Below are positions 1,388-25,700 of a stretch of 26,796 nucleotides of DNA, one piece after another. The notes beneath the pieces are model-generated. The model searched no databases. It was not told where the DNA came from and saw nothing but the letters and a program-made list of their open reading frames with translations. Within the stretch, counting starts at the first letter, position 1. The number at the start of each line of letters is the position of its first letter. A program made the translations under genes and the position numbers. This DNA is from a virus. Taxonomy: Duplodnaviria; Caudoviricetes. The DNA is taken from positions 1-26,796 of the IMG/VR virus record IMGVR_UViG_3300020419_000074; one strand, given 5' to 3'.

Positions 1388-4300
1388 ATGGCAGACTTTA
1401 GAATTGATAGAATTAGATTTCGTTGGAAAAATACTTGGGCAGGAGCAACTGCTTATATCAAAGATGATATAGTAATTTACCAAGGTAAGTCTTTTGTATG
1501 TTTAATTGGACATACATCTGATTCTAGTTTTTATACAGATTTAAATGCAACTTCGCCTAAATGGGTCTTGATGCAAGACGGTTATGAATGGAAAAATAAC
1601 TGGACACCTAGTACGTATTATGATGTAGGTAATATTGTTCAATGGAAAGCATACGTATATAGAGCATTAACGCCACACACATCTGCTTCAACAACTGCAC
1701 AAGGTCTTACATATGATAATGCAAAATGGGAATTAGTTGCTAAAGGTTCTAATTGGTTAAACACTTGGTCTGTTAGTACAGATTATGATTTAGGCGATGT
1801 TATTAGATATAACGGATATGTTTACATAGCAAGCACCAAACATACATCTGCCGCAACCGAAGCATTAGGACTTGAAGCAAATCAAGGTGCTTGGACACAA
1901 ATAAGTAAATCAGATCACTGGAGCGGAGATTGGACTTCAGCTACAAGATACAGAGTAAGTGATATTGTCAAATATGGTGGCATTGTTTACAGAGCTAATA
2001 CAGGACATACAAGCTCTGCTAATTTGAATGCAGATTACGGATATTGGGATATTGTAAATTCTGGTATCGAATATAAAGGTGAATGGACAACTAGCAATAG
2101 GTATAAACTTAATGATGTTGTTAAATATGGAGCAACTTTATGGAAGTGTAAAACTGAACACACGTCTAATGCAACACTATTTACATTTGATCAAACTTCC
2201 GATCCAGGTACAACTAAATGGGACTTATGGTTACCTGGTTTAGAATATGAAACAGTTTGGAATCAAAATACACAATATGCAAAAGGTGATATCGTACTAT
2301 ACGGTGGATATGCATATACAGCTCTAACAAATCATCAAGGTTCTGTACCAAGTATAAACGGAAAAATCCAAGATACAGGAAACTGGGAATTATTAAAAGA
2401 AGGATACAGGCACTTAGGTGATTGGGGTGAAGATAGTTCAGGATATGATTATAATACCGGAGATGTAGTAAGATTAAACGGATACTTATATATTTGTTTA
2501 TCTGATTCGCATGATGGTGCATCACCTGATGGTTCTAACAAATGGCAAGTACTTGTTACTGGTAGACATCACAGAGGCGAATGGGCAGACAACACACAAT
2601 ACGAAAAAATGGACGTTGTGCTATTTGCTGGTTCAGCATACCTTTGTTCAAAGCAACATATATCTTCAGCTTCAGGAGCAAGACCAGATTTAGATATTGA
2701 TTATACACAAGAACAATTTTGGACTCTTTTAATTCAAGGTGAAGCTACAAACGTTTTAAGAGAACGGGGTGATTTAAGAACTCATAATTCACAAACAGAT
2801 AGTTCAATGGCTGATGAACGATTAGCTATAGGACCTGCAGGACAAGTTTTAAAAGCAAACAATCCACTTGATGCAACACTAGATACTGGCGAAATTGCTC
2901 AATGGGGTAACTTCGGTGCAATACCAAAAGTATTTTATGTATCTACTACTAGTGGATTAGATATTACTACTAACGGCACTACAGAAGCAGCACCTTTCAA
3001 AACAATAAAATACGCATGTGATTTTATTCAAGCAGACTTAAACAATAGAGCACCAGCTTCTGTTTTTATTAAAACAGGGACATACGAAGAAATACTTCCT
3101 ATTAGTGTGCCTAAAGATGTTGCACTTATAGGAGACGAATTAAGAAGTACATCAGTATTTCCTAAAGCAGGATACGAAACTAGCGATATGTTCCGTGTAC
3201 GTAACGGATCAGGCGTTAGAAATATGTCATTAAACGGCCTTAGTGGCACACTAGGCGCAGCAAATTCATATGGAACAAAACGTCCTACAGCTGGCGCATA
3301 TGTAAGTTTAGATCCAGGAACAGGTCCTACTGATACAAGTGTACATATTACGAGTAAGTCACCATACATACAAAATGTTTCAACTTTTGGTACAGGATGT
3401 ACAGGACTAAGAGTAGATGGTTCATTACATAATGCAGGTTACAGGTCTGTAGTAGCTAACGACTTTACACAAATTTTAACAGACGGTATAGGTTATTGGT
3501 GTAGTTATAACGGAAGATCAGAGCTAGTGTCTGTGTTTACATATTACTGTCATGTAGGATACTTAACTGAATTTGGCGGCAGAGTTAGAGCTACTAACGG
3601 TAACAATTCATACGGAGATTTTGGATCAGTTGCTGAAGGAGTAAACCCTGAAGAAACTGCAAAAACAGGAACAGTTAACAATAGATCAAAACATGCACAG
3701 ATTAGAGTTGTAGAAAACAATGGTACTAACTTACTAGCATTTGGATATTCAAATGCAGGAGAAAACTATACAGGAACACCAAGTATCTCATTAACAGGTT
3801 CAGGTTACAATGCTAGTTTAGCATTTGAAGAAACAAGAAAAAACGGAGTTAATGAAGTTAGAGTTATAGATCCAGGAGACAGTAGTACACCTGGAGGACT
3901 TAATTACACATATATTGTAAATAGTGCTCAATGGGGAGATAGTACAAGTATTAAATTATCAAATGCTGATACTACAGGAACATCAACCGCATATGTGGGA
4001 CAAAGAATAGTTTTACTATCTGGAGCAGGTGATGGACAATATGGAAGAATAAGTTCTTATAATAGTGTAACTAAAATTGCAACTGTAGAAAGAGAAAGCG
4101 ACGGAGCTGCTGGATGGGAACATATCTATCCAGGATATCCGATAGAAAGTTCTTTGACTACAGCAACTAGATATGCAATTGAACCTCGAGTTGAAATTAC
4201 AGAACCTTCTTTTGCATCAGCTAACGTAACAGTTCCTCACAAAGTAGATACTATTACTGCTAATGATATAAACTTTATTATAGCAAAAACTGATTTAATT

Positions 4301-6169
4301 TCATATTCAGGAAATGCTGGAGGCTCATGGACTACATCATCAGGAAGTATAACTGGTAACTGGACTGAAGTAAAAGCTTCTAAAGGTACTAGTTATGTAA
4401 TGGCCGTACAAGGCACTACAGAAACAACAGTAGCAGGACTATCTGCGGATAACGGACAAAGCTGGTCAACTACAACTTTATCAAATGGTGCTAATTGGAT
4501 AGACGTTGCATTTAAGTCAGACAAATGGATTGCAATATCAAGTGGAAGTGCAACAGAAACATCTATTAGTACAAACCAAGGAGGTTCCTGGAGTGCAGGC
4601 ACAACTATTTCAGGACAGAATAAAAAAATTGAATACGGTAACGGAATATTTGTAATATTACCTGAATCTGGAAACACAGCATTAACATCAACAGATGGTA
4701 CAACTTGGACAACAAGAACGTTACCAGTAACATCTAATTGGCAAGATCTAAAATATGCCAATGGTAGGTTTGTTGCTGTTGGCGTAAGCGATGCAAAAAT
4801 AATTTATAGTCTTGATGGAATAACTTGGTATGATGCATATATAGATATCGGAAATGTACAAGATAGTACAACAGGATTATGGAATAACCTTGCATACACT
4901 CAAGGTGTTTGGATGTGTTCTAATAGTGTAGATAATACTATTATTACATCACAATCAGGAAGCGTTTGGTCTTCATTGTTAGATGATAGTACAACTAAAG
5001 CATTTTTAACAACAGGCGGATATGCCTCAGTTGCTGGCGGACTTACTTCAAGTGGTATGCCTGTATTTGTTGGATCAAAAGGAACAACAGATGCATGTAG
5101 CGTAAGCTATGGAGCTAGACCGTTTATGAGAGCAGATGTTGCAGGTTCAAGAGTTTCAGGATTTACAATTTACGATCCAGGTAGTGGATATAGTTCTACT
5201 CCTACAGTAACAATACATGATTATCCAAATACTATTGATGCAACCTATACTGTAAAGACAGCGGCAACAGGAATATTAGGACAACCAGTATTTAATAATA
5301 GAGGACAAGATTGGAATAAGTCTGCGGCTACTGTTACAGGTAGTGGATACTCTGAAGTCTATCAACAAGGTAAACAGATTGTATTAGAAGGAGTAACAGC
5401 CATTCCAGGACCTGGAGAAAACCTTATTATAAGTGGCATTAATGATATTATTTACAAAGTTGTAAGCATAGATGCACAAACTGGTGCTGGCCCTTACGGG
5501 TTAACTTTATCAATCGATCCAGAAATTGGTAATGCTGAATCACCTGCACACGGAACAGCTATAGAACTTAGAGAAAATTATAGTCAGATTAGATTAACAG
5601 GACACGACTTCCTTGATATTGGAACTGGTAATTTTAGTGAAACAAATTATCCAATTTTATATACAGATGGATATGACTTTGGCGCAGGATCAGAACCAAA
5701 ACAATTTAACGAAGTTATTGAAAAAGGCGGCGGCAGAGTATTTTATACAGCAACAGACCAAGATGGAAACTTTAGAGCTGGTGAACAATTCTTAGTTGAA
5801 CAGTCAACTGGTATTATTACATTAAATTCTAGTTTGTTTAACTTTTCAGGATTACAAAGTTTAACATTAGGTGGAATAGTTGTTGGTGGAACAGCCGTTG
5901 TTATTAACGAATTTTCAAAAGAACAAACTTTTATTGCTAATTCAAACAATGTTGTACCAACACAAAGAGCAATAGCAGCTTATATAGCGTCAAGAGTAAG
6001 TGGTGGTGGATCTAATGCAAGTACAAATGCATTGAATGCAGGACAAATTAAAATATCAACAAGTAATATAGATCAAGCTGGGGGTACAACAATACAGGTA
6101 CCTCAGAAAATGACTATAAAAGGTGGAGCAGATGGGCATTATTTATCAAGTATGTATTTCGTTGCATAA
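1388..6169 (+). CDS. Large tail fibre/spike protein A (1593 aa): 8 CBM5/12-like repeats, putative pectin-lyase-like beta-helix core, Asp-box beta-propeller insert
   Basis: AGGA RBS. N-terminal W-x5-Y-x3-D-x-V-x-Y-x-G-x-x-Y repeats. 'FYVS...G...APFKTIKYA...IKTGTYEE.LPI.VP..VALIGDELR' is typical of a beta-helix entry. Six Asp-box-like motifs. Colinear paralog of 6209..10999. Confidence 0.75.
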   Translation: MADFRIDRIRFRWKNTWAGATAYIKDDIVIYQGKSFVCLIGHTSDSSFYTDLNATSPKWVLMQDGYEWKNNWTPSTYYDVGNIVQWKAYVYRALTPHTSASTTAQGLTYDNAKWELVAKGSNWLNTWSVSTDYDLGDVIRYNGYVYIASTKHTSAATEALGLEANQGAWTQISKSDHWSGDWTSATRYRVSDIVKYGGIVYRANTGHTSSANLNADYGYWDIVNSGIEYKGEWTTSNRYKLNDVVKYGATLWKCKTEHTSNATLFTFDQTSDPGTTKWDLWLPGLEYETVWNQNTQYAKGDIVLYGGYAYTALTNHQGSVPSINGKIQDTGNWELLKEGYRHLGDWGEDSSGYDYNTGDVVRLNGYLYICLSDSHDGASPDGSNKWQVLVTGRHHRGEWADNTQYEKMDVVLFAGSAYLCSKQHISSASGARPDLDIDYTQEQFWTLLIQGEATNVLRERGDLRTHNSQTDSSMADERLAIGPAGQVLKANNPLDATLDTGEIAQWGNFGAIPKVFYVSTTSGLDITTNGTTEAAPFKTIKYACDFIQADLNNRAPASVFIKTGTYEEILPISVPKDVALIGDELRSTSVFPKAGYETSDMFRVRNGSGVRNMSLNGLSGTLGAANSYGTKRPTAGAYVSLDPGTGPTDTSVHITSKSPYIQNVSTFGTGCTGLRVDGSLHNAGYRSVVANDFTQILTDGIGYWCSYNGRSELVSVFTYYCHVGYLTEFGGRVRATNGNNSYGDFGSVAEGVNPEETAKTGTVNNRSKHAQIRVVENNGTNLLAFGYSNAGENYTGTPSISLTGSGYNASLAFEETRKNGVNEVRVIDPGDSSTPGGLNYTYIVNSAQWGDSTSIKLSNADTTGTSTAYVGQRIVLLSGAGDGQYGRISSYNSVTKIATVERESDGAAGWEHIYPGYPIESSLTTATRYAIEPRVEITEPSFASANVTVPHKVDTITANDINFIIAKTDLISYSGNAGGSWTTSSGSITGNWTEVKASKGTSYVMAVQGTTETTVAGLSADNGQSWSTTTLSNGANWIDVAFKSDKWIAISSGSATETSISTNQGGSWSAGTTISGQNKKIEYGNGIFVILPESGNTALTSTDGTTWTTRTLPVTSNWQDLKYANGRFVAVGVSDAKIIYSLDGITWYDAYIDIGNVQDSTTGLWNNLAYTQGVWMCSNSVDNTIITSQSGSVWSSLLDDSTTKAFLTTGGYASVAGGLTSSGMPVFVGSKGTTDACSVSYGARPFMRADVAGSRVSGFTIYDPGSGYSSTPTVTIHDYPNTIDATYTVKTAATGILGQPVFNNRGQDWNKSAATVTGSGYSEVYQQGKQIVLEGVTAIPGPGENLIISGINDIIYKVVSIDAQTGAGPYGLTLSIDPEIGNAESPAHGTAIELRENYSQIRLTGHDFLDIGTGNFSETNYPILYTDGYDFGAGSEPKQFNEVIEKGGGRVFYTATDQDGNFRAGEQFLVEQSTGIITLNSSLFNFSGLQSLTLGGIVVGGTAVVINEFSKEQTFIANSNNVVPTQRAIAAYIASRVSGGGSNASTNALNAGQIKISTSNIDQAGGTTIQVPQKMTIKGGADGHYLSSMYFVA
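1421..2725 (+). repeat. 8 tandem ~50-aa carbohydrate-binding-module-like (CBM5/12, ChtBD3-like) repeats
   Basis: Examples: WSGDWTSATRYRVSDIVKYGGIVYRANTGHTS and YKGEWTTSNRYKLNDVVKYGATLWKCKTEHTS. Eight counted by eye. Confidence 0.75.
3596..3640 (+). repeat. 45-bp perfect direct repeat, copy 1 (copy 2 at 9344..9388)
   Basis: aacggtaacaattcatacggagattttggatcagttgctgaagga (NGNNSYGDFGSVAEG) is identical in both paralogs. Confidence 0.95.
4210..5110 (+). other. Asp-box/BNR-like beta-propeller domain within fibre protein A
   Basis: SGNAGGSW, SADNGQSW, STNQGGSW, STDGTTW, SLDGITW, SQSGSVW at ~45-aa spacing. Absent from paralog B. Boundaries approximate. Confidence 0.7.
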
Positions 6170-6181
6170 TGATGAAAATGG

Positions 6182-6189
6182 CATAAATA
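6182..6189 (+). promoter_or_regulatory. T4-like late promoter (CATAAATA)
   Basis: 7/8 match to TATAAATA in the short intergenic gap before the 1596-aa gene, followed by a GGAG RBS. Confidence 0.6.
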
Positions 6190-6208
6190 TTAAAAACGGA
6201 GCAAATAA

Positions 6209-9200
6209 ATGGCTGAATTTAAACTAGGTAGAATAAGATTTATATGGAAAGGTGACTGGGTTACCTCAACTACATATTATAAAGACGATATCGTCAGATA
6301 TGGTGGTAATACCTATATTTGTATTAAAGGTCATACAGCTCCAGCAGACTTTACTACAAGTCAAGGAACATACTGGAATAAAATATCCGACGGACAAGAC
6401 TGGAAAGGTATATGGGTAGCAGGCACAGTTTATAAAGTTAACGATGTTGTTGCATATGGTGGATACTTATATATTGCAAATACAGGACATACTGCCGCTG
6501 CAACCAATACTTTAGGATTAGAGCAAGATCAATCTAAATGGGATACTTTTGCTGAAGGATTTAATTATTCAAATGATTGGACAATAAATTATAGATATAA
6601 AGTAAACGACCTTGTCAAATATGGCGGTACTGTTTATATTTGTATTACAGGGCATACTTCAGCAGCAACTACAACATTAGGTTTAGAAGCAGACCAAGCT
6701 AAATGGCAGATATTTTCAGAAGGGTTTAATTGGAAAAGTGATTGGACAACTTCTTTTAGATATAGAGTAAACGACATTGTTAAATATGGTGGAATTGTTT
6801 ATGTTTGTATCGAAGGACATACATCTAATGCTTCAGCCGCAAGCGGTTTAGAAGCAGATCAAGCCAAGTGGCAGTTTTCAAATAAAGGTATAGAGTACAA
6901 AGGCGACTGGGCAACAGCAACAAGATATAAAGTTAACGACATTGTTAAACACGGTGGCGCAATTTGGATTTGTGTAACTTATCATACTAGTCAAACTAAC
7001 CTTAGTGATGACGAAGCAAAATGGAATCAGTTTGTAGAAGGTTTAGAGTTTGAAGATAGTTGGGCAGGCGTTACAAGATATCAACCAGGTGACTTTGTTA
7101 CTTACGGTGGATATTCTTACGTTGCTAAAACAAATAACTTAGGAGCAAGACCAACTTCAAGTCCAAGTGATTGGGATTTATTTACAGCAGGTTTCCGTTT
7201 TATAGGAGACTGGGGTGATGATAGTTCAAATTACGAATACTTTACAGGCGATGTTGTTAGGTTAGGCGGATACACATATCTTGCTATTGCAGATAGCTCA
7301 GGACAACGTCCACCAAATGCAACTTACTGGCAAAAGTTAAACAGCGGTGTTGCATGGAAAAATGCTTATGCAGACGCTACTTTATACGATGCAGGTGACT
7401 CAGTTAGACAAAACACAAGCAGTTATATTTGTGTATTAGCACATACTTCTAATACAGGTGTTAATGATCCAGCTAACGATTCAGGCGGAACATACTGGAA
7501 TCAACTCGCAGGCGGACCTGAAACAGATGTTCTAACAACACAAGGTGATTTAGTTTACTATAGTGGTTCAGGACCAGCAAGACTTCCAATTGGTAATGCA
7601 GGACAAGTTTTAACAGTTAATGCATCAGGAAATGCACCTGAATGGGCATACATAGGAAAAATTAATAATATATTCTATGTGGACACAAATACAGGACAAG
7701 ACCTGCCAGCTTCAAACTACGGAGTTACTATTGCAAGGCCTTGGAAAACAGTTAGATATGCATGTGAACAAGTTAACTATGGTGCATTAAGAGAAAATGC
7801 AGGTTACTTACTAAAACGAAATAGAAACTTTATTGCAGAGGAAGCACTACAATGGGTTAGATATAATGTAGCAAATCCAACAGGAATTTGGGTAGGATAT
7901 ACATGTGATGACGAAGGCAAGTGTCGAAGAGATATAGGATATATTACTGATTCAATAATATGGGATCTTACTCATGGCGGTAACAAACGTTCAAGAGATT
8001 CCACAATGACTTTCTTCCAAGCTAACGGAAATCTTCTTGCATCAATTTCAGATGAAGTTGCTCAAACAAATGCTACTATTAACTTTGCAAGAGATTTAAT
8101 GATTAATAGTATTTTAGCAAATACTGCACCTGCTACAAATTATCAATCAGAGATGAGCTTTACACCAGCACATTCACAAGTTATTGACACAGCTTATACA
8201 GCAGAATCAGATGCAAGTACACTAATTACTGCAAATATAAAAATTACTACAGATGCACTTACCGCTGGTGTGAACACTAATGTTCCAGCAGAAAGAATTG
8301 CAAACAATAGTATATTTGTAAAAACAGGACAATTTAACGAACACTTACCTATTATTGTTCCAAGAGAAACAGCAGTCATAGGTGACGAACTTCGTGGTAC
8401 TAAAATTGTAGCGGCATCAGCAGTAACAGGAGCATCAGATGTTCCTAAAAGTATTGCTGCAATACAAAGATTAAAAGCAATTATTAGCGATATTGCTACA
8501 AACGGATCTGTTACAAAAACAGCAGGCAACGCATCAAGCCAAGTTACTTCTAAAGTAGCAGGATCTGCAGGAGCAGGGACTGCGGCTAACGGATTATTCC
8601 AACAGTTAGAAGATTATATTGATTTCCGTGTTAACGGTGCTAGTGGAGACTCAACTACTCCTACACCAGAAGGAACAAATACACCTACATCAGATACAGG
8701 ATACTTGTTTGCACAGGAATGTATTGAAGCTAATAGAACTTTCTTAAAAGACGAAGCAGTAGCATATATAAATGCTACATATCCTAGTTACTCTTACAGC
8801 GAAGCAGCTTGTAAAAGAGATGTTGATAGATATTTAGATGGTGTAATATATGATTTAAAATACACAGGAAATTACAGAACAATACTAAACGGACGCTACT
8901 ATGCTAACTCAGTTAGCGGAAATGCTAAAGAAGACATGTTCTATATGAGAAACGGTACAGGACTTAGAAATTGTACTATTAGTGGTTTAGCAGGCGCATT
9001 AGGATCTGCTAACGCATACGGAACAAAACGTCCAGATGCAGGAGCATTTGTAAGTTTAGATCCAGGATTTGGTGTTAGTGATACAGATGCTCATATTGTA
9101 AGCAAATCACCATACGTACAAAACGTATCAACTTTTGGTACAGCTTGTATTGGTATGAAAGTTGATGGCGCACTACATAACGCAGGTTATGACTCAATTG

Positions 9201-10999
9201 TTGCAAACGACTTCACACAAATTCTAAGTGATGGTATTGGTGCTTGGATTACAAACTTAGGTAGAGCTGAACTTGTTAGTGTGTTTACATATTACAATCA
9301 CGTAGGTTACCTTGCAGAAAATGGTGGTAAGATCCGTGCTACAAACGGTAACAATTCATACGGAGATTTTGGATCAGTTGCTGAAGGACAAGATGCAACT
9401 GAAACAGCAATTACAGGTACTGTTGATAATAAATCAACAGAAGCAGAAGTTACAAACGTTTTAACAGACGGAAATAATATTTTAACATTAGAATACGTTA
9501 ATGCAGGTACAGGATATACAGCAGGCGGAACTACAATTACTATAACTGGTGAAGGCTATGGACACGCAATTAATAACCCTGTTGTTACAGCAACTGGCGG
9601 TGTTATGGAAGTTAGGCTTACTGACCCAGCTAGTAACTTAGGTGGCGCAGGATATGTAACTGCCGCAGGTGTAGCACAATCTGGAAATACAACTCAAATT
9701 GTAATTTCAAATACAGACACCGGTATTAACACAACTTATACAGGAATGAGTATATACCTTACAGCAGGTGCAGGTGCAGGACAATATGGTTATATTCAAT
9801 CTTATAATTCTGGTTCTAAAACAGCAACAATTTATAAGCACAGTGACGGAACAGCAGGATGGGATCATGTAACAGGAGTTTCACCTGTAGCTGTACTAGA
9901 TGATACTACAAATTATATTATTGAACCAAGAGTAACATTTAGCGGCGGCGGCGTAACAGCTTATGCAGATATTGCAAAAGGTCGTGTAAAAGTTACAGAC
10001 GGAAAAATTTCAGAAGTAAGACTTTGGGATCCAGGTACAGGGTATAGTGGAACACCAACATTTACATTAACAGATCCAAATAATACTGTTGATGTGCCTC
10101 ACGCAGTTAGAACTGGTGATGGAGTACTAAGACAACCAACATGGACAAATAGAGGTACAGCATTTACTACAGCACAAGCATCAATAACAGGCGACGGTCA
10201 TGCAGATAGATATCAACCTGGTGCAAACATAAGAATTTCAGGTTTAGCATCTGCTCCACAAGCTGGCGCAAACGTGGCATTCTCAGGTATTGCAGGTAAA
10301 TGGTTTAAACTTGTTAAGACTACAAACCTTATAGGCAGTGGACCGTTTGATGCAACATTCCAAGTTAGCCCAGATATTACAACATCAGAAGCACCAGAAC
10401 ACGGTGAAGCTACAACTGTAACAATTAGATACAGCCAAGTAAGATTAACAGGACACGATTACCTTGATATTGGTACTGGTGACTTTGCAGATACTAACTA
10501 TCCAGGAAGTCCAGGAGTTAATCCAGATCAAACCAAAGAAACAAATAACTTTGGTGGTGGTAGGGTGTTCTTTACATCAACAGACCAAGATGGTAACTTT
10601 AGAGTTGGTGACTTGTTTAGTATTGAACAATCAACAGGTATTGCATCATTAAATGCAGATGCATTTAATATTTCAGGATTAAATCAATTACAACTAGGTT
10701 CAGTTGAACTAGGCGGTGATGGTGCAACAATTACAGAATTCTCCACAGACGGAACATTTACAGCAGACAGCGATAATATTGTTCCAACACAAAAAGCTAT
10801 TAAAACTTATATTACTAGTCAAATAGGTGGAGGACAAGGTGAACTTAATGTAAACAGCATAACAGCAGGTGTAGTGCAGATTAGCGGATCAACAATAACT
10901 ACAACCACTAATGTTGCAATAAATACATTACAGAAAGTAAACTTTACTAAAGGGGTTGACGGTCATCCGTTGGCCATGAACTACTATCTACAACAATAA
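6209..10999 (+). CDS. Large tail fibre/spike protein B (1596 aa), paralog of A, with two helical-module inserts
   Basis: GGAG RBS. Same N-terminus style (MAEFKLGRIRFIWK vs MADFRIDRIRFRWK). Shared blocks with A: GDELR, SKSPY.QNVSTFGT, VANDFTQIL.DGIG, ELVSVFTYY, YSQ.RLTGHD.LDIGTG, TDQDGNFR, VPTQ.AI..YI. Confidence 0.75.
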   Translation: MAEFKLGRIRFIWKGDWVTSTTYYKDDIVRYGGNTYICIKGHTAPADFTTSQGTYWNKISDGQDWKGIWVAGTVYKVNDVVAYGGYLYIANTGHTAAATNTLGLEQDQSKWDTFAEGFNYSNDWTINYRYKVNDLVKYGGTVYICITGHTSAATTTLGLEADQAKWQIFSEGFNWKSDWTTSFRYRVNDIVKYGGIVYVCIEGHTSNASAASGLEADQAKWQFSNKGIEYKGDWATATRYKVNDIVKHGGAIWICVTYHTSQTNLSDDEAKWNQFVEGLEFEDSWAGVTRYQPGDFVTYGGYSYVAKTNNLGARPTSSPSDWDLFTAGFRFIGDWGDDSSNYEYFTGDVVRLGGYTYLAIADSSGQRPPNATYWQKLNSGVAWKNAYADATLYDAGDSVRQNTSSYICVLAHTSNTGVNDPANDSGGTYWNQLAGGPETDVLTTQGDLVYYSGSGPARLPIGNAGQVLTVNASGNAPEWAYIGKINNIFYVDTNTGQDLPASNYGVTIARPWKTVRYACEQVNYGALRENAGYLLKRNRNFIAEEALQWVRYNVANPTGIWVGYTCDDEGKCRRDIGYITDSIIWDLTHGGNKRSRDSTMTFFQANGNLLASISDEVAQTNATINFARDLMINSILANTAPATNYQSEMSFTPAHSQVIDTAYTAESDASTLITANIKITTDALTAGVNTNVPAERIANNSIFVKTGQFNEHLPIIVPRETAVIGDELRGTKIVAASAVTGASDVPKSIAAIQRLKAIISDIATNGSVTKTAGNASSQVTSKVAGSAGAGTAANGLFQQLEDYIDFRVNGASGDSTTPTPEGTNTPTSDTGYLFAQECIEANRTFLKDEAVAYINATYPSYSYSEAACKRDVDRYLDGVIYDLKYTGNYRTILNGRYYANSVSGNAKEDMFYMRNGTGLRNCTISGLAGALGSANAYGTKRPDAGAFVSLDPGFGVSDTDAHIVSKSPYVQNVSTFGTACIGMKVDGALHNAGYDSIVANDFTQILSDGIGAWITNLGRAELVSVFTYYNHVGYLAENGGKIRATNGNNSYGDFGSVAEGQDATETAITGTVDNKSTEAEVTNVLTDGNNILTLEYVNAGTGYTAGGTTITITGEGYGHAINNPVVTATGGVMEVRLTDPASNLGGAGYVTAAGVAQSGNTTQIVISNTDTGINTTYTGMSIYLTAGAGAGQYGYIQSYNSGSKTATIYKHSDGTAGWDHVTGVSPVAVLDDTTNYIIEPRVTFSGGGVTAYADIAKGRVKVTDGKISEVRLWDPGTGYSGTPTFTLTDPNNTVDVPHAVRTGDGVLRQPTWTNRGTAFTTAQASITGDGHADRYQPGANIRISGLASAPQAGANVAFSGIAGKWFKLVKTTNLIGSGPFDATFQVSPDITTSEAPEHGEATTVTIRYSQVRLTGHDYLDIGTGDFADTNYPGSPGVNPDQTKETNNFGGGRVFFTSTDQDGNFRVGDLFSIEQSTGIASLNADAFNISGLNQLQLGSVELGGDGATITEFSTDGTFTADSDNIVPTQKAIKTYITSQIGGGQGELNVNSITAGVVQISGSTITTTTNVAINTLQKVNFTKGVDGHPLAMNYYLQQ
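6242..7500 (+). repeat. 8 tandem CBM5/12-like repeats
   Basis: Example: WKSDWTTSFRYRVNDIVKYGGIVYVCIEGHTS. Eight counted, matching protein A one-to-one. Confidence 0.75.
9344..9388 (+). repeat. 45-bp perfect direct repeat, copy 2
   Basis: Identical to 3596..3640. Confidence 0.95.
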
Positions 11000-12715: not shown

Positions 12716-12731
12716 TAGGAAAGAAATTGAT

Positions 12732-13724: not shown

Positions 13725-13738
13725 TAGGAAAAATAGAT

Positions 13739-14836: not shown

Positions 14837-14840
14837 ATAG

Positions 14841-15646: not shown

Positions 15647-16597
15647 ATGAGATCAAAGGCTTTTTTTGTGAATGGTGGTTACGGGAGAGTAGTTAGTTCT
15701 ATTCCAGCTTTTGAATTATATGCTAAAGAATCTGATGACGAAGATTTTGTAATTATTTGCGAAGGCGGAACTGATGCATTCAAAGGACACCCTGACCTAG
15801 ATCATCGTGCTTATGACAACTGGCACAAAAATTTATTCAAAGAAAAATTAATCGACAAGGATATTATATCTCCAGAACCATATCGTATATGGGAATATTA
15901 CAACCAAAAATGTAATTTAGCACAAGGATATGACATTGCAATTAATAACAAAGGTTTAAGAGAAGTACCAAAGCCAAGAATGTTTCTTTCAAAAGAAGAA
16001 ATGATAATGGGCCGACAAATAATAAATCAAGTAAAAGAAAGATTACAAAAAGAAAAAGTAGTAATTATACAACCATTTGGTAGAGGTGTACAACACGTTG
16101 ATGGTTCTTTTATCGATAATACTGGTAGAAGTATAGAATATAAAGATTTCAAATTGTTAATTAAAAAATTACAACAAAATGATTTTGCTGTAGTTTCAAT
16201 GGCTGAAATGGGATTTGATTTTAGTAAAGATAAATTACCATTTGATGTTGCTATGCCCGAACAAGTATCATTAAGGCATTGGTCAGCTGCAATTAAATTT
16301 TCTAATCATTTTATTGGTTGTGATAGTGTTGGACAACATTTAGCTTACATAATGGATACTCCAGCAACAGTTATATGCGGTCCTACATTTCCCATAAACA
16401 TTTCTTATCCAGACTGTGACTATTTTAATATTGTTGATCTAGGAATGAAAGACAGAGTATACGATCCAATTAGGATTATGCCAGATGAAACTACATCAAG
16501 GCACAATGAAAATTTAATGACAATGAATGACGACATTGTAGAATATGTTGTTGACAGAGTTTTAGGAAAACCTATACCAGAGGATGACAATGAATAA
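15647..16597 (+). CDS. Glycosyltransferase, GT9 / ADP-heptose heptosyltransferase-like (GT-B fold)
   Basis: AAGGA RBS. C-terminal GT9 signature SLRHWSAAIKFSNHFIGCDSVGQHLAYIMDTPATVICGPT, plus IIQPFG and the N-terminal GGYGR loop. Confidence 0.8.
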   Translation: MRSKAFFVNGGYGRVVSSIPAFELYAKESDDEDFVIICEGGTDAFKGHPDLDHRAYDNWHKNLFKEKLIDKDIISPEPYRIWEYYNQKCNLAQGYDIAINNKGLREVPKPRMFLSKEEMIMGRQIINQVKERLQKEKVVIIQPFGRGVQHVDGSFIDNTGRSIEYKDFKLLIKKLQQNDFAVVSMAEMGFDFSKDKLPFDVAMPEQVSLRHWSAAIKFSNHFIGCDSVGQHLAYIMDTPATVICGPTFPINISYPDCDYFNIVDLGMKDRVYDPIRIMPDETTSRHNENLMTMNDDIVEYVVDRVLGKPIPEDDNE

Positions 16598-18407
16598 AAA
16601 TAATTCAACATGGATTGCAGGAATTGCAAGAGGACATAATGCAGGAGTATGTTTATTAAAAGATGGCGAAGTAGTTTTTTCAATTGAAGAAGAACGTTTA
16701 AGTAGAACCAAATATGATGGCGGACCGTTAGCTTCAATCGTAAAAATTTTAGAATATACAGATAAATTAGATTATTTAATTGTAGCACATACGCAACCTT
16801 TACAGCAAACTGGTCCTACATTAGAGTTTTCAATGGATGACGCCTATACAGGCTTGTGTAGAAAATTAGGATTAATTGATAGACATAATAGAAGTAAACC
16901 TCACCCTCAAGTAATTGATGTAGCAATGTATCATCATCAACTACATGCAGCTTGTTCTTTTTATAGAAGCGGGTTTGAAGATGCTGTTGCGGTAGTTATT
17001 GATGGAGCAGGAACTTTCATACCAATGTCTGTAAACAGGGAAGAAACGTATGGTTTTGAAACTGAAACATTATTTAATTGTTCTTATCCTGCAAACTTTA
17101 GTGAAATTGGTAAACATGTTGGTACGAGAGGTCCCCACCCAGTAGAGTTTATTACACAAAAAAATGAAGCAGGTGAAGATTATGAAATTACAGTTTCAGA
17201 TCGTGCAGGCATTGTAAAAGTTTACGAAGCAGTTACACAGTATTGCGGATTTATGGCAATTGAAGCAGGAAAGACAATGGGACTATTTCCATATGGTCAA
17301 AAGAATGATAAGATTCCAGAATTATTTGATAATATGGGTAGAGTGCCACTGTCTAATAGAAATGTAATTGCACCAACCTATCCTAACGCAGCTTTAGTAA
17401 ATGAATTTCTTTATACAGAGTTAGCCTCACACGAAATCGACGACGGCACAGAACAAGGTGAAAAAATAGATTTAACTTTACATCAGAACAGGAGAGACCT
17501 TGCATATGCTTGTCAAATTCAAACACAACAAGCAGCAAGTAATTTAATTAGAGAAGCTGTAGAACGAAGTGGTAAAAAGAAAGTAGTAGTAAGCGGAGGA
17601 TATGGCTTAAATTGTGTAGCAAATTATCATTATCTAAAAGATTTAGAAGATTTAGGTATTGAAATTTATGTTGAACCAGTAAGTAATGATGCAGGCACAG
17701 CAATGGGAGCTGCATTGCTTATGTATCATAAACTTTCTAATAGCAGTAATGTAAGAGAAAGAAAAGGTGATAATTTATACTTAGGTCCAAAATATAGTTT
17801 TACATCACAACAACTAAAATCTATTGCAAAAGAATTTACTGCTGATATAAAAGATAATGTTACTAACGAAGAAGTAGTAGATTTAATTACTTCAAAAAAT
17901 ATTGTAGCAGTATTTCAAGGACAAAGTGAAAACGGTCCTAGAGCATTAGGAAATAGATCTTTACTTTATGATCCAACTGACCCAAACGGAAAAGATCATG
18001 TTAACGAAGTAAAACATCGTGAATATTTTAGACCGTTTGCAGGAAGTATACTAGAAGAAGATGCACACGAATGGTTTGATTTACGAGGTATGGACAGTTC
18101 ACCTACAATGATGTATGCTGTAAACTGTCAACCAGGCATCAAAGAAAAAATTCCTGCTATTATACATGTAGATGATACTTGCCGCATTCAAACAGTAAAT
18201 CAAGAACAAAACAAAAATTATTATGATCTAATTAAAGCATTTAAAGAAAAGACTGGTTGTCCAATTATCTTTAACACATCATTTAACTTAGGTGGAGAAC
18301 CGCTAGTTGAAACATTAGATGATGCTCTCAGAACACTACAAAACAGCAGGATTGAATACTTATATTTGCCAGAATACAATACATTATTTAAAATAGAAAA
18401 CGAATAA
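16590..18407 (+). CDS. O-carbamoyltransferase, NodU/CmcH/TobZ family
   Basis: EEERLSRTK, HHQLHA, VIDGAG, GKTMGL..YG, SGGYGLNCVAN, NDAGTAMGAA, GPRALGNRS, KHREYFRPFA, HVDDTCRIQTV, NTSFNLGGEPLV. The ORF track starts at 16584, but the ATG at 16590 is better spaced from the GAGGA RBS. Overlaps the GT9 stop. Confidence 0.93.
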   Translation: MNKNNSTWIAGIARGHNAGVCLLKDGEVVFSIEEERLSRTKYDGGPLASIVKILEYTDKLDYLIVAHTQPLQQTGPTLEFSMDDAYTGLCRKLGLIDRHNRSKPHPQVIDVAMYHHQLHAACSFYRSGFEDAVAVVIDGAGTFIPMSVNREETYGFETETLFNCSYPANFSEIGKHVGTRGPHPVEFITQKNEAGEDYEITVSDRAGIVKVYEAVTQYCGFMAIEAGKTMGLFPYGQKNDKIPELFDNMGRVPLSNRNVIAPTYPNAALVNEFLYTELASHEIDDGTEQGEKIDLTLHQNRRDLAYACQIQTQQAASNLIREAVERSGKKKVVVSGGYGLNCVANYHYLKDLEDLGIEIYVEPVSNDAGTAMGAALLMYHKLSNSSNVRERKGDNLYLGPKYSFTSQQLKSIAKEFTADIKDNVTNEEVVDLITSKNIVAVFQGQSENGPRALGNRSLLYDPTDPNGKDHVNEVKHREYFRPFAGSILEEDAHEWFDLRGMDSSPTMMYAVNCQPGIKEKIPAIIHVDDTCRIQTVNQEQNKNYYDLIKAFKEKTGCPIIFNTSFNLGGEPLVETLDDALRTLQNSRIEYLYLPEYNTLFKIENE

Positions 18408-18410: not shown

Positions 18411-18417
18411 TTGTATA

Positions 18418-18813: not shown

Positions 18814-18826
18814 CATTTAGATTATG

Positions 18827-18834: not shown

Positions 18835-18861
18835 TGTTAAAGCCAGAAGGATTATTGAAAT

Positions 18862-19710
18862 ATGCCAACAGTTACAAATAAACAGTTAGAATCAGCATTC
18901 GGATTTAAAAGTACTGGGTTTACTGTTGATGATCAAGGTAACATTACTGCTAGATCACTTGTAGAAACACAAGGATCAGAAACCTTTGATCTAGCTACTC
19001 CAGCAAATTTTACAATTACAGAAAACGGTTCTAATACGGCTTACATTTGGACCCCTGGAGGTGAAAGTGCTAATATCACAATATACAGAGGAGAGTCATA
19101 TATAATTGACTTGACTTCGTTGACTAATGCATTTTATCTTTATGATGGTGCTACACAATATCATACAGGACTCACACATTCAGATGGAGGTATCGGTTCT
19201 ACAGCATTAGGTAAAACATCAGGTAGGCTAGTGTTTGCTGTTTCTTCAACGGCTCCAAATAGCCTAACATATAGAAACTTAGCAGGCACTATTACAGGAA
19301 ACATAAGTGTAGAGGATCCTATAGGATCATTTACTACTGTAACAGTGAAAAGTACAAACGATAGTAATGCAACTAATAACGGAGCATTAATAGTAACTGG
19401 TGGTTTAGGCGTAGGGCTAAAATCAAATTTCGGAGGCACTATAAATGCACTAGGCGGCATAAGTGGTGATTTAACAGGATCAGTGTATGCAACCGATAGT
19501 ACATTATTAGTTGATAGCACAAGCGGAAATATTGTAGGACCAATAAATACTACTACAATTAACAATACTACAATAGGAGCAACTACACCGTCAACAGCCG
19601 CTTTTACAACAGCTACAATAGCAAACTCGCCAACAGTTAATACGTCGGCAACAAATAAAAAGTATGTAGATGAAACAGTATCAGCTTTAGCGATAGCACT
19701 TGGGACTTAA
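18862..19710 (+). CDS. Short tail-fibre-like protein (282 aa)
   Basis: Thr/Ser/Gly-rich. Fibre motifs GALIVTGGLGVG, GDLTGSVYATDSTLLVD, INNTTIGATTPSTAAFT, ATNKKYVD. Ends in ALAIALGT. Confidence 0.7.
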   Translation: MPTVTNKQLESAFGFKSTGFTVDDQGNITARSLVETQGSETFDLATPANFTITENGSNTAYIWTPGGESANITIYRGESYIIDLTSLTNAFYLYDGATQYHTGLTHSDGGIGSTALGKTSGRLVFAVSSTAPNSLTYRNLAGTITGNISVEDPIGSFTTVTVKSTNDSNATNNGALIVTGGLGVGLKSNFGGTINALGGISGDLTGSVYATDSTLLVDSTSGNIVGPINTTTINNTTIGATTPSTAAFTTATIANSPTVNTSATNKKYVDETVSALAIALGT

Positions 19711-19713
19711 CAG

Positions 19714-22700
19714 ATGGCAAAAACACAAATAAAAGATTATATATTTAAACCAGGCATGAGTGCAACAGGAAACTTATATCCTAACGGATATAGTTTGCTT
19801 AATAGTAACAAAGCATATTTACAAGCTGAAACTACTGCATATATTACTTCACAAGTAAATGCAGGAGCAACTGGATTTTCAGGTTACACGTTTGACGTCA
19901 CAAAGGTTCAAAAAGATATAGGATTAATTATTAACGCTTACTTACATGATTTAAGATACGGCGGTAATCAAGAAACAAGTAAAAATGCAGGTTTTTTCTG
20001 GAATGGGGCTACTTCTCAAATATCAGGAACAAGACAAGCTGAAATTAATTATCAGACTGAAGTTAGAAACATAATTAATAATTTTATTTTAACAAATACA
20101 GCTCATACTAGTTTAAGTGCATCAAGTCAAGTAATAGATAATAGTAAAACTACTGAAGCAGGTGTTACAGCTAGAATAACAGAACTATCTAATATAATTA
20201 TTAATGTTATTACAACAGGATTATCAGCATTACCTACACTAGTACTAACAGGTGCAGGTACAATTAAATTTCAAGGCAGGATAGAATTAGAAGACTTATT
20301 ATTAGTAACAAATACAACAAAAAATGAAATAATTTATAATTTTTCTAATAACGAACTAGGCGGAACAATTTCTCAAGATCAGTATTCTGCAGATACTGAT
20401 TTTCCAAAATTTTTACAAATTACAGATGCTGTAACAATACTGACACTTAACAAAGATACTTCAGCACAATCTGCAGATGATGATTTACAAATTTTTAAAG
20501 AATCAACAGAAATAAGAACTAAACCATATGACTTTGGTGTAGATGCAATTGAACGTATGCGTCATGCTTCACCTTTAGCCATGCTTGATGCTGACTTTGA
20601 ATATGGACTACAGCCTACGAAATGGTCTGCAATTGGAACACTTAGAGGTTATCCTAGTATCTACGAAGTACCAGGTACAACAACAGATGTTCAAAGTGTT
20701 GTTACAGATGCTAGTGATGGAACATCAGGTGTTGGTCAAAGTTTAATTACTGTAACTACAACTGCGCCACATGGATTTATTGAAGGTGATCCTGTAACAA
20801 TTAAGGCATTAGAAAATTCTATTGCAGGTGCAGCAAGAGCAGAAGGATCGTTTATTATATATACTGTTCCTACTGCATTAACATTTACTTATTATGCGAA
20901 AGCAAAAGTAGGAAGTTCAAACGGAGATGTACTTTATACTTCTTATACACAGTTAAGAAAAGCAGGATTTTACACAGGAGCAGCAATTGGTAGTCCGCAA
21001 GCCGCTGTTGCTATTCAAGGATTTACTGTGGTATCTCAAGGTGCTTCTGGTACAGTAACTTCTGAAGTTATAACTCCATCAGGAGAAACACGTATTCCAT
21101 ACGATGGAACATCACCAACAATAGGTGCTCCATTAGTACATGCAAGTATACCAACAGGTTCACAAACAACATCAGTAATTGATCAATCAGCAGGAGGTGG
21201 ATCTTTTTTAACTCCTGAAATTTCTACAGATGTTTCAATAGGAGCACAATCTATTCAACTAGTAGATGCAACTGGTGTTGTACCTAACTTAGCTTTTAAC
21301 AGAGGCGATGGAGTTGCTACTTACGTTGAAACTGTTAATCAAGGAACTAATGTAATCACATTGTCTAGTCCAACTACATCTGCATTTACTGCTAATACAG
21401 CTATATATTCAGGAGTAGCGGCTAATAATTATACACCGATTGGTGCTAGTTTACAAGTTAATATAAGTTCAAATGGTACATTATATACAGCTGGAACCAT
21501 AACTAATGTAGGTTTAAATTATGCAGTTGGGGACATTGTAAAAATACCAGGAACTAGTTTAAGTGGACAAAGTCCTGCTAACGATTGTTCATTACAAGTA
21601 AATTCTGTTGATGCATCAGGAGGTGTTTTAACTTTATCAGTAATATCATCTTCCATACCTTTTGACGGTGATGGTACATATAACGGACTAACTCCTACAC
21701 CTGACGGTGGAGAAGGAGTAGGTGCTGAATTTACTGTGGTGTTTACAGACGGAACATTTGCAGCAGTAACAAGAACAAACGACGGATCAGGATATATTGT
21801 TAACGATAGAATTATTATATTAGGTTCACAGTTTGGTACTAATGGTGTTGACGGAACTCATGATTTAATTATTACAGTATCTAGTGTTGACGGAAGCGGG
21901 GCAATTACAGGTACTACACAAACCGGAACAGCTCCCGATGCTGTAATCGATTATGCTGTTACAGACGACAGTACAGAAATGATAATGTCAGCAGCTGGAT
22001 CACATTTGACGATTCAAAATATTAGTGGTGCGGATGCAAGTAGAACGGCAGGTACATATAATGACGTAGGCGGCACAAGTAATGGTTCAGGTACTGTAGG
22101 TACTTTTGATATTGTTGTTGCAGCTGATGGATCAGCAAGTGTAACTGTTAAAACAATTGGTTCTGGGCATACAGCAGGAGATACAATTACAATACAAGAT
22201 TCTGATTTAGGTAGCGGTGGCGCGGCAAACTTAACATTTGATGTATGGCAAACAGGAAATGGTGCAGGTAATGATGCGGCATTTACAGTAAGAACAAATG
22301 GTACAACATACTCAATAATTAATATTACAGCAGGTACTGGCTTTATGGTTGGTGAAACTATTACAGTTCCAGGTAATATACTTGGTGGTGCTACACCAGC
22401 TAATGATTTAGTAGCAACTGTTTTAACAGTTGATGGCACAGGCGGACTGCAAGGAGTATCACCTAGCGGAACAGCAGTTAATAGTGCAACTTATACAGCA
22501 CAGTCAGGAACTAAACTAATTGGTACTGGGTTTATTGCTGATATATCAACATCAGGTGGAACATATAGTATAGATTTTGATAGTCCAGGTGATGGTGGAA
22601 CAAATTACGGATTGAATCAAACTTTTACAATCTTAGGAACTAGTTTAGGCGGAGCCACACCAGCTAATGATTTAACAATATCGATCACAGGAGTTGTATC

Positions 22701-25700
22701 AGATGATTCAACTGCTAGAGGCGAAGTTACTTCAGTATCAGTTTCAGGAACAGCTTCTACTGGTACGTTTAGTGCAACGCCAGTATCTGGTAATAATGTA
22801 GCAGTAAGTGGTACTGGAGCATTATGGACCTTAACTAGAAGCTCACAAGATTCAACAGGTATATATGAAAATTTTAGTTATATTGGTGGAACAAATTACG
22901 TATTTGGAGACAAAGTTGTTATTCCAGGAAACTTATTAGGTGGTGCAACACCAGCTAATGATGTTACTATTATGTCAACTGGCGCGAACTTTGCTACGTT
23001 TACTGTTTTATCAGGCCAGCCAGCACAAGCATCTGTACTTAATTTACTTTGTACATTTACAATGACAGAAGCAACAACTGGACAAATTGCAGCAGGAGCA
23101 AGCATAAGTTTTGAAGCACTAGCTACACTAGAAATTGACTTTCCAAATGCACACGGATTAGTGCCTGGTAGTAGTTTTATTGTAACTACACAATCAGATG
23201 ATGGCTCAAACAATCATAACTTAGCTGACGGTACTTTTATTGCAACAAATATTCCAGCTATAGATAAAATTAGATATCAAGCTAGAGCGGCAGGCACGAT
23301 TGATACAGGTTCAAGCGATATTATTGCCATCGTTTATCCAAAGCCAGATAGTTTCTTTATACATAGACCATTTGACGGAGGAGTGCAGTTAGGTACAGGT
23401 GGTCCACAGCACGGTGCTCAAGCAATACGTCAAAGTAAAAAATATATTAGATATCAGTCAGGTAAAGGTATTATGTATACTACTGGTGCTCTATTTGCAC
23501 CAAGTTACGACTTACAAAGTGTTACTGCTGACGGAGTAGAAGTAGATTCGTTAATAACAATAGTAACTGATGATCACGACCACGGAGTACAAATTGGTGG
23601 TATAATTAGATTACTCGGAGTTGAAACAGAAGGATATAATAGTGGTCCTGGATACGGAAACCAGTATGACCCATATTCAGACTATACAGTAGTGCAAGTA
23701 ACTGATGAACGAACATTTAAAGTAAGAGCAAAACGTAGACTAGGATCTGTTACACCAGATCTAGGATTTAACGCACAAATGAGTGTTGTTACATGGCACG
23801 GTGCAACTGTTAGAGCAGGTGTATTTGATGACCAAAATGGAATTTTCTGGGAATATGACGGTGTTAATATTAATGTTGTACAAAGAACAGGTACATTCCA
23901 GTTAGCTGGTACTATTGCAATGTTAGCAGACGCAAACCTTATTACAGGTACAAATACTAAATTTACAAAACAACTAAAAGCAGGCGATAGAGTTATTGTT
24001 AAGGGAATGACTCACGTTGTAACAAACGTTGCTAGTGATACTAGTTGTACAGTAACTCCAGACTTTAGAGGTGTTAATGATATCAGTGGTTCTAAAATGA
24101 TGTATGTTACAGATAGAAAAGTAAAACAACAAGACTTTAATATTGATAAATTAGACGGCACAGGTAAGTCAAAATACAATATGGACCCTGCAAAAATGCA
24201 GATGATTGGTATTCAATACAGTTGGTATGGTGCAGGTTTTATTGACTATATGGTAAGAGGAGCCGATGGTAACTTTGTATACTGTCATAGAATGAGAAAC
24301 TCAAACGTAAACACAGAAGCGTTTATGAGATCAGGTAACTTACCGGTTAGGTATGAAGTAACCAATGAAGGACCTCCAGGACAACTAAGTTCAGCAATTG
24401 ATTCTTTGGTAACTACTATTCCATTAAAAGATGCAAGTTTCTTTCCAACAAGTGGTACAATTTATATTAATAACGAAATAATACAATATGATGGAATAAG
24501 CGGAAATAATTTAATAAATTGTACAAGAGGTACGACTTTTGCTAATTTCCAAGCAGGAGCACAAAGAACATATTCAGCAGGCGCAGCTACTAGCCATGTA
24601 ATTAATACAGGAGTTGTTCTTATATCAAATACTATTACACCATTAATTAGTCACTGGGGTTCTGCATTTATTACAGATGGCGGGTTTGATGAAGATAGAG
24701 GTTATATTTTCTCATACCCAGAAACAAACATATCAGTTACTACTATTAAACAAACAGCTTTCTTACTTAGACTAGCACCTAGTGTATCAAACGCTATCAT
24801 AGGTGATTTGGGAGAACGTGAACTATTAAATCGTGCTCAATTATTACTTAATGGTATTGAAATTACATCAGAAGCAGGTGATGGTAAAGGTATTATTGTT
24901 GAAGGAGTTATTAATCCACAAAACTATCCAATTAACCCAGTTGACGTTGGTTGGAATGGACTAGCAGGACTTGCACAAGGAGGACAGCCTAGTTTTGCAC
25001 AAGTTGCTTCTGGTTCATCAGTTAACTGGAGTACTGGTGTTTCTGCTACTACTGCAAGTGCTACTGCTCTTGCAACAACAACAGCCGCAATAAATTCAGG
25101 ACAGTATATAGGATATAACAATAGTAGATATATCTATATAGGTGCCGCTGATTATAGATCAACATTTGGAGATAACAGTTTAGATCATGTATTAGGTAGA
25201 AATATTTCAGGTACACATATACCCGCTGGTACAGTTATCAACGGTGGATATATTAGTCCAACAGGCAGTTATGGATACTTTTATATAAGTCAGCGTGTAA
25301 GTGGTGGTAATATTTCTCAGAACCAAACAGATTACTTTACAATTACTTTGAACTCTGCAGCGGCTAATTCAAACAAAGCATTATTTGATAAAACATCTTG
25401 GTTGGCAGCAGGAGCAGCCAACGGCACATCAACAACAGGCGGAAGCGTTACATGGCCAGCTGGTTCATTAGTATCAAGCATATCATTAAAAACATGGGCA
25501 GGTACTGAGTACTACGAAGTTATATTTAATAATGCGTTTTCAGGAACTCTTGCAGCTGGTTCAGGAACTGTAGAATTTACATTTGAACAACCGCCGTATG
25601 CTCTACCAGGTGAAACAGTATTTTCATTTATTGCTGTTCCAGGCGAACGTTCGTCGTTAGATTTAGGAGATCTAAAAGAAATTACTAATACTCCATTAGG

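Follow-up and report, generated by a model that had tools for sequence, protein, structure and literature searches.

Protein modification systems with a defined attachment site have been described for bacteria and, to a lesser degree of definition, for phages. In Bacteroidota, O-glycans are transferred in the periplasm to the sequon D-[S/T]-[L/I/V/T/A/S/M] (PMC12871550). Mycobacteriophages are reported to carry glycans at the C-terminal ends of their capsid and tail tube proteins (Freeman et al. 2023, cited in PMC12619734), and phosphorylation and acetylation, without a site pattern, are reported for marine phage virions (PMC12014285). Other phage glycosyltransferases have been assigned to the host surface or to DNA (PMC7029224, PMC12801897); sugar clusters are known from cyanophages, and whisker- or hair-like fibres from the phages CBB, 121Q and Atu_ph07 (PMC7824862). 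The subject of the present study is the tripeptide D-S-[S/T] (DS[ST]) in structural proteins encoded by the viral sequence IMGVR_UViG_3300020419_000074 (26,796 nucleotides, Caudoviricetes). We refer to this entire stretch as the window; it is a 26.8-kb virus fragment with a tail/structural module. A sequence-only reading of the window had taken the tripeptide for an acceptor tag of a phage glycosyltransferase, likened to the Bacteroidota sequon and inserted into loops of virion proteins. We find that DS[ST] is a real, selected and lineage-restricted linear motif. It is apparently undescribed, as no description of a D-S-[S/T] virion motif was found in the literature searched, mostly without subscription papers and supplements.

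Comparison with described systems

DS[ST] resembles the Bacteroidota sequon in the aspartate directly preceding serine, in the acceptance of DST and DSS and in being a three-residue motif of soluble loops, but differs in that the Bacteroidota system uses threonine nearly as well as serine and has a mostly hydrophobic third residue (PMC12871550). Sequences of the latter kind are scarce here: in 78 aligned proteins of the A/B fibre type (fibre proteins A and B of the window and 76 representatives over 400 amino acids (aa), together with 299 DS[ST] copies), D[ST][LIVAM] occurs 398 times against 508 expected and DT[ST] 131 times against 185, and D-[S/T]-hydrophobic occurs 20 times in the window against 26.2. 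Phage virions are moreover assembled in the cytoplasm, whereas the Bacteroidota system acts on exported proteins. Because DT[ST] and that sequon class are depleted, the motif does not belong to the Bacteroidota system, and this link had to be given up. Genes for phage-encoded glycosyltransferases are present in the window and in its relatives, and structural proteins are the proposed acceptors of such enzymes in mycobacteriophages as well; the candidate sites described here are however predicted internal loops of fibre and baseplate proteins.

Occurrence of D-S-[S/T] in the window

Fibre protein A (1593 aa; 1388..6169, + strand) consists of CBM5/12-like repeats, beta-rich middle domains and a BNR-type beta-propeller, and its paralogue B (1596 aa; 6209..10999, +) also has CBM5/12-like repeats. 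Both are assigned to phrog_9851 and contain seven and four copies of the motif, respectively; structural proteins of 282 aa and 2033 aa are also encoded in the window. The 16 positions listed in the sequence-only reading were exact, as were its fractions of Asp-Ser dipeptides followed by Ser or Thr (7/8 in A, 4/10 in B, 2/3 in the 282-aa and 3/8 in the 2033-aa protein). Its claim of enrichment is borne out by 2000 composition shuffles, which gave an expectation of 5.6 ± 2.4 for the 16 cases among 29 dipeptides (p ≈ 0.001). The excess lies in A (7 versus 1.8) and B (4 versus 1.25); taken by itself, the 2033-aa protein shows no enrichment (3 versus 2.1), and Ser or Thr follows only one of 16 Asp-Ser dipeptides in the other 14 open reading frames (ORFs). 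Neither Asp-Ser itself (29 versus 27.6) nor DT[ST] (5 versus 7.6), NS[ST] (1 versus 6.4) or ES[ST] (2 versus 3.2) is raised in the four proteins. DS[ST] ranks second among 400 XY[ST] motifs (p 2.3e-4, ≈0.09 after Bonferroni correction) and 27th among 16,800 class motifs, having been chosen after inspection of the window sequence. The signal of the window is thus borderline after correction for multiple testing, and we accept the motif as real because the enrichment replicates in relatives. A motif at the level of DNA was ruled out: GATAGTWCA is found seven times, always in frame as codons of the motif, but the codons of the middle serine are mixed (AGT 9, TCA 3, AGC 2, TCT 1, TCC 1), as expected for a protein motif.

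Enrichment in relatives and controls

The close relatives of the window are fragments (38-47% complete by CheckV at 136-165 kb), and a single relative, G013, is complete (364,554 bp). Capsid proteins with 65-71% identity to that of relative G002 occur in Vibrio phage 2.275.O, Phosso, GAP32, CBB and PA5oct, and we presume that the clade can be called RaK2-like. All of the best 45 listed capsid relatives have Proteobacteria as hosts; the searches yielded no cultured phage belonging to the clade. Families were counted over 162 loci, taking one protein per group sharing more than 25% of 5-mers and leaving out window-like proteins. As a proxy for virion proteins we used the content of S+T+G+A+N, with a threshold of at least 0.38 or, for the genome-wide counts given below, at least 0.36. 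The p-values of these comparisons are Poisson values which ignore relatedness, and ratios and controls are therefore given more weight.

DS[ST] is enriched both in the A-type family (139 copies versus 57.1 expected; 33 proteins of 71 hits) and in the B-type family (149 versus 74.5; 44 proteins of 109 hits). A set of 120 listed homologues of A residues 780-1270, divided by Pfam content and coverage, separates into 102 CBM-bearing fibre-family proteins with 408 copies versus 178.7 and 18 propeller-only proteins in which the motif is depleted (21 versus 35.7). The excess recurs in unrelated families of 61 baseplate loci, namely in a giant wedge protein (88/56.1), a gp6-like protein (26/13.8) and two others encoded in the baseplate operon (16/6.0 and 10/3.4); other families of the same loci gave 2/6.6, 0/2.3, 8/10.4 and 6/5.9. 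A comparison of structural with non-structural proteins had been proposed as a check, and in the complete genome G013 virion-like proteins are indeed enriched and others not: 54 proteins rich in S/T/G/A/N contain 55 copies versus 33.5, and the 351 others 38 versus 38.4. The corresponding rich sets gave 21/14.4 in G001, 26/17.0 in G002, 30/18.7 in G003, 16/10.0 in G005, 31/18.9 in G006, 35/22.9 in G008, 7/6.9 in a part of G007 and 21/14.4 in the Pelagibacter myovirus Mosig. For controls the values were 35/32.0 (P-SSM2), 16/27.7 (S-CAM1), 21/24.2 (S-SCSM2R), 9/18.0 (first 100 kb of HTVC008M), 2/6.7 (DLP6) and 3/4.3 (part of T4). The extended form DDS[ST] is raised 4-8-fold in G001, G002, G003, G006, G008 and Mosig.

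After removal of A and B, the three marine relatives G013, G006 and G008 together still hold 104 copies versus 68.2, compared with 85 versus 110.5 in six cultured T4-like controls; by this comparison DS[ST] ranks fourth of 209 motifs, behind TG[ST], GF[ST] and GY[ST]. No excess was detected in 80 pelagimyophage baseplate loci (381 versus 372.8), single loci ranging from 0 to 2.4-fold. Two side observations concern the same counts. One baseplate wedge protein of P-SSM2, gp8 (L220:10635-12233), contains 8 copies versus 0.97 in a genome without overall excess. DT[ST] is strongly under-represented in the S/T/G/A/N-rich proteins of G013 (19 versus 41.2) and is low in S-CAM1 (16 versus 31.2), as it is in the A/B fibres.

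Retention, substitution and insertion

The 299 copies were assigned to sites by alignment columns, a rough procedure for proteins shuffled to this extent; an alternative clustering, by chained BLAST maps, was dropped because it merged 264 of them. They occupy 90 sites versus 67-76 for five permutations of the motif (rank 4 of 85), and sites with at least five members number 17 versus 3-9. The excess comes from these 17 retained sites, which are spread over several folds. Since such sites are raised and singleton sites are not, the triplet is kept once it is present. Its surroundings are poorly conserved (local identity 0.30 versus 0.40). With the other two residues fixed, retention amounts to 0.78 for D, 0.64 for S and 0.88 for the third position with S and T taken as equal, the two replacing each other freely there, and of 11 triplets tested DS[ST] is the tightest at positions 1 and 3 (third position of DG[ST], 0.56). 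Replacement of the middle serine is rare (G 0.06, A 0.06, T 0.04; P outside the top seven). Both AGY and TCN serine codons are found at 13 of the 17 retained sites, which indicates selection for serine or repeated origin.

The idea that the motif is inserted into loops stood at particular sites and failed in general. A349/B338 and A471 (numbered by residue) face gaps of 3-5 residues in cyanophage orthologues, the two loops of the 2033-aa protein named as examples are longer than the sister repeats, and the B814 loop is lengthened, too. Of 78 copies located in CBM repeats, 36 coincide at least partly with insert states of a profile of the repeat (background 5%), 27 of them from one site. Over all copies, a majority gap in BLAST alignments was present for only 6/299 (2%), versus 3.1% for DT[ST] and 3.3% for DG[ST].

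Location of the individual sites

Residues 290-1290 of A were modelled with AlphaFold2 from 92 sequences, and the model reached a mean predicted local distance difference test score (pLDDT) of 86.5 and a predicted template modelling score of 0.55. Its C-terminal part matches YCF48-type propellers and tail fibres of Agrobacterium phage 7-7-1; in a sequence search of solved structures, A matched CBMs only, and no useful match was obtained for the heptosyltransferase-like protein described below. Mapping on a predicted structure had been suggested with the expectation of exposed turns. In the model none of the six sites falls within the core of a strand, and two of them (A471 and A1159) are in low-confidence loops.

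The most retained site is A831 (DSS, 3878..3886, +), shared by 39 of 78 A/B proteins and located in a loop of variable length that is modelled as a confident loop or turn (pLDDT ≈90); in alignment A1 the invariance of its D and S is 90% or higher. A349 (DSS, 2432..2440, +), a three-residue insertion in the last CBM repeat, forms a short helical turn in the model (pLDDT ≈81), and 13 of 15 aligned proteins keep it. It is homologous to B338 (DSS, 7220..7228, +), which is therefore not an independent copy. A471 (DSS, 2798..2806, +) lies in an inserted hairpin loop (pLDDT ≈62), is kept by 7/9 A-type proteins and is absent from B and from cyanophage orthologues. The same number of A-type proteins keeps A1159 (DST, 4862..4870, +) in an inter-blade loop of the propeller (pLDDT <50). 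A1200 (DST, 4985..4993, +) is the majority consensus within otherwise unconserved columns and a confident turn (pLDDT ≈91). A851 (DST, 3938..3946, +; kept in 3/9 A-type proteins) is a tight beta-turn (pLDDT ≈95) where DAT, DTT and NTT are tolerated, and we read it as a structural turn. A45 (DSS, 1520..1528, +) is weak, with 3/9 A-type proteins keeping it, and is probably incidental.

In B, site B814 (DST, 8648..8656, +) is present in all six close B-type proteins, with T in 11/11 copies of the site. B362 (DSS, 7292..7300, +) is placed in a CBM repeat loop and kept in 4/6 B-type and 2/9 A-type proteins; B597 (DST, 7997..8005, +), found in one of six B-type proteins, that of the window only, looks incidental. 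The two DST of the 282-aa protein (19495..19521, +) lie within a fibre hairpin repeat that is seen many times in G006; they resemble the repeat [FVA][GA]DDS[ST][VLI], which recurs in several G006 proteins, and are read as structural hairpin turns. In the 2033-aa protein, residues 752 (DST, 21967..21975, +), 998 (DST, 22705..22713, +) and 1046 (DST, 22849..22857, +) are kept by the five closest orthologues (58-83% identity). The first is absent from the 11 distant segment types listed, the other two are insertions relative to sister repeats, and that at 1046 is kept by some orthologues at 34-36% identity as well. The D-S-[S/T] copies are probably a mixture of kinds.

The GT9-like enzyme and other candidate enzymes

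The window encodes a 316-aa heptosyltransferase-like protein (15647..16597, +; phrog_8954), recognised by fold and language-model features. Its fold is of the GT-B, GT9-like type, and its best structural matches include WaaC, WaaF and TibC (PDB 2gt1, 1psw, 4rap, 4rb4). The same cassette includes a NodU/Nol-like carbamoyltransferase (16584..18407, +). At the edge of the heptose pathway genes a HAD phosphatase, which we take to be GmhB-like, and a cupin are encoded (25812..26796, −); in G002 HldE-like and epimerase genes are found as neighbours. GT9 heptosyltransferases have their catalytic aspartate in the N-terminal first loop. The protein of the window shares the fold of WaaC, WaaF and TibC and adjoins ADP-heptose genes, but G-R is found in this loop in all eight aligned sequences, and the enzyme does not track with the motif. 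Between the fibre genes and this gene lie three Cys-rich ORFs (11705..14836, +; 8.9-10% Cys) with no DS[ST] copy. We infer that they are candidate targets of the GT9-like enzyme; homologues were confirmed by BLAST in 9 of 20 loci that have the GT9-like gene.

A block of fibre, GT9-like, carbamoyltransferase and heptose genes is also found in the five cultured cyanophages P-SSM2, S-CAM1, S-SSM7, S-CAM3 and Sf-FS3, and in AG-345-P14 a GT9-like gene directly follows a fibre gene. The cyanomyovirus 'LPS gene' block (P-SSM2 PSSM2_300-313) follows the gene order of the window, from the fibre through Cys-rich or small ORFs and phrog_8954 to the carbamoyltransferase and heptose genes, but in place of the pair A and B it has a single, shorter fibre, which misses the motif loops. 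Co-variation of the motif with glycosyltransferase and heptose genes, which had been put forward as a check, was not observed: six fibres of cyanophages whose genomes carry a GT9-like enzyme contain 4 copies versus 8.1 (P 7e-5 under a 2.25-fold excess). These fibres are shorter and some domains are missing, but the shared domains are also without motif loops. Within the clade, 28 loci were informative and 20 more were too short to class. The 20 loci with a GT9-like gene downstream of the fibres hold 117 copies versus 50.8 (ratio 2.30), seven loci without it in at least 6.5-7 kb downstream, all of them fragments, 33 versus 19.7 (ratio 1.68, p 0.004), and one further locus without it 0 versus 1.1. 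In G008:63338-78858 (L125) other enzymes and different small fibre genes replace the Cys-rich/GT9 cassette after the fibre pair; one fibre of this pair is split over two ORFs. Because of the deficit in cyanophages and the excess in clade loci lacking the gene, the GT9/heptose cassette is not the explanation of the motif. The rate ratio between loci with and without the gene is 1.37 (interval 0.93-2.02), so that D-S-[S/T] may depend on the cassette in part.

At least two more clusters of glycosyltransferase-like genes are present in relatives. GT-A/GT8-like genes directly follow the baseplate operon in G002:129492-132672 (L169) and are succeeded by radical SAM genes; when cultured phages were searched with one query, the baseplate-linked GT-A, Ralstonia phage RsoM2USA was the only match. 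The second cassette comprises GT8/24-like, DUF6716-like and GT2-like genes and FkbM methyltransferases, plus a sulfotransferase in Mosig (G002:13111-20838; G013:15833-25655; Mosig_00185-00191). It is common to Mosig (EXVC030M), G002, G003, G006, G008 and G013 and missing from HTVC008M, P-SSM2 and S-CAM1; Mosig, which infects the same host as HTVC008M, has no GT9 match. As a source of a possible modification the second cassette is a lead. It was found after the fact, most pelagimyophage contigs are too short to be scored for it, and its support is weak because the spread of single pelagimyophage loci covers the 1.5-fold value of Mosig. In CcrColossus, a Caulobacter jumbo siphophage, a glycosyltransferase/methyltransferase cluster directly follows the tail genes (L274:17620-23261), without DS[ST] excess.

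Possible functions of the motif

We tentatively propose, with a probability of about 0.4, that D-S-[S/T] is a lineage-specific serine acceptor site for a modifying enzyme. A cytoplasmic, phage-encoded enzyme would modify the middle serine; this would most likely be a glycosyltransferase, though not the GT9-like protein, and the aspartate and the hydroxyl group at position +2 would form the recognition turn. The modified loops would be presented on fibre and baseplate proteins of this jumbo-phage lineage and, more speculatively, could shield or solvate large exposed fibres. An enzyme acceptor fits best because the motif does not depend on fold, favours Ser rather than Thr at the middle position, requires a hydroxyl at +2, lies in acidic loops and is restricted to a lineage. 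Several results weigh against this proposal. The model shows confident turns or loops at four of the six sites (pLDDT ≈81-95), and the ordinary turn DG[ST] has 19 retained sites and a 1.8-fold enrichment (330 versus 182), while singleton DS[ST] sites are not raised above the controls (46 versus 40-53). The family of the 2033-aa protein shows no excess (38 versus 40.8; 26 of 90 hits), that of the upstream protein g1 a weak one (49 versus 38.8; 42 of 99 hits), and G002 is flat once A and B are removed (15/14.0). Five cultured jumbo relatives pooled have 45 copies versus 32.7, though four of them lack a match to the glycosyltransferase queries tried. No candidate enzyme follows the motif: RsoM2USA carries the baseplate-linked GT-A, which is thus rejected as modifier, without enrichment (11/10.2); the GT8/24-like gene alone does not suffice in DLP6 (2/6.7), S-SCSM2R (21/24.2) or CcrColossus (3/4.2 in eight tail-region proteins); and the Pkinase family is found in none of five genomes (G013 and four cultured relatives).

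A close rival, which we judge somewhat less probable than the acceptor site, is that nothing is attached and that selection acts on structure: the motif would be an Asp/Ser/Thr capping turn that stiffens long fibres in seawater and, in acidic loops, perhaps binds Ca2+ or Mg2+. The similar behaviour of DG[ST], the confident turns at A851 and A1200 with the substitutions tolerated at the former, and the hairpin repeat around the copies of the 282-aa protein are in agreement with this, as is the gap-proneness of 0.129, which is similar to that of DG[ST], GS[ST] and DD[ST] (0.10-0.13). Yet G, A and P are rarely found in place of the middle serine, control phages are rich in DG[ST] as well but not in DS[ST], the same propeller fold is depleted outside the family, and cyanophage orthologues fold without the loops. 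A generic Asx/ST turn should moreover not be confined to one lineage, and no excess exists in the T4-like controls or the pelagimyophage loci. Binding of an ion is suggested by the acidic flanks (1.54 D/E per 10 residues versus 1.09) and by the A831 loop, which reads DxDxDS in some B-type proteins and DxNxDG in others and so resembles the Dx[DN]xDG calcium loop; this, too, is a short acidic motif, and unrelated folds have acquired it in their loops on repeated occasions (PMC3123361). This spacing is however present in only 3 of 299 copies, with 2.6 expected, and in none of the 16 copies of the window. Independence of fold and retention regardless of position would suit any linear binding motif, and the triplet might be a docking peptide for a lineage-specific partner such as a decoration protein, a whisker fibre or an assembly chaperone. 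Whisker- or hair-like fibres are reported for CBB (PMC7824862), which is among the nearest capsid relatives, and the mild excess in cultured relatives would suit a lineage-wide partner. We nevertheless regard docking as improbable, as three small polar residues would provide little specificity and the flanks share nothing but acidity.

That the GT9-fold enzyme of the window itself transfers heptose to D-S-[S/T] was suggested by TibC, a protein heptosyltransferase, among its best fold matches and by the position of its gene after the fibres in 20 of 28 informative loci, with the higher motif ratio there. The low count in cyanophage fibres that coexist with the enzyme, the persistence of the motif where the gene is not nearby or, as in G008, has other genes in its place, and the adjoining Cys-rich ORFs without a single copy render this quite improbable. 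There is finally very little room for chance and shared ancestry, by which a few old conserved loops would inflate the counts. It is true that the window by itself fails correction, that homologous sites are not independent and two of them supply 62 of 299 copies, that distinct sites are only modestly raised, and that single-protein outliers occur, as seen with gp8 of P-SSM2. However, 237 copies versus 135 are left without the two top sites, and an excess is seen again in unrelated families and after A and B are taken out, while controls remain at or below expectation. Of the sequence-only reading we therefore retain the selected linear motif in predicted loops of outer virion proteins and abandon its tie to the glycosyltransferase/heptose genes along with the Bacteroidota link. 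Extending the proposed acceptor site, one may imagine that marine jumbo phages related to RaK2 and GAP32 use D-S-[S/T] as a cytoplasmic sequon for an O-glycan coat made by their own enzymes, in addition to a second, heptose-based system on Cys-rich tip proteins; this wider picture we consider doubtful.

Other observations

Protein B contains two helical C-[RK]-R-D motifs (window positions 7922 and 8810; aa 572 and 868), for which no Pfam match was obtained at E values up to 1 and which presumably resemble the bilin-attachment region of phycobiliproteins. Genes for heme oxygenase and PcyA-like proteins are common to Mosig and G006.

Implications

The targets of marine myovirus glycosyltransferases have been assumed to be host lipopolysaccharide or phage DNA (PMC7029224, PMC7824862, PMC12801897). 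The negative result on the GT9/heptose cassette is useful in this respect, since D-S-[S/T] should not be assigned to that cassette. If the proposed acceptor function is true, a defined acceptor motif on the virion would make the question of the target testable with three-residue peptide variants; modified sites would become predictable from sequence, and the motif would represent a portable cytoplasmic glycosylation tag. Even with nothing attached, a lineage-restricted motif that extends across unrelated folds represents a real constraint on the particles of these phages.

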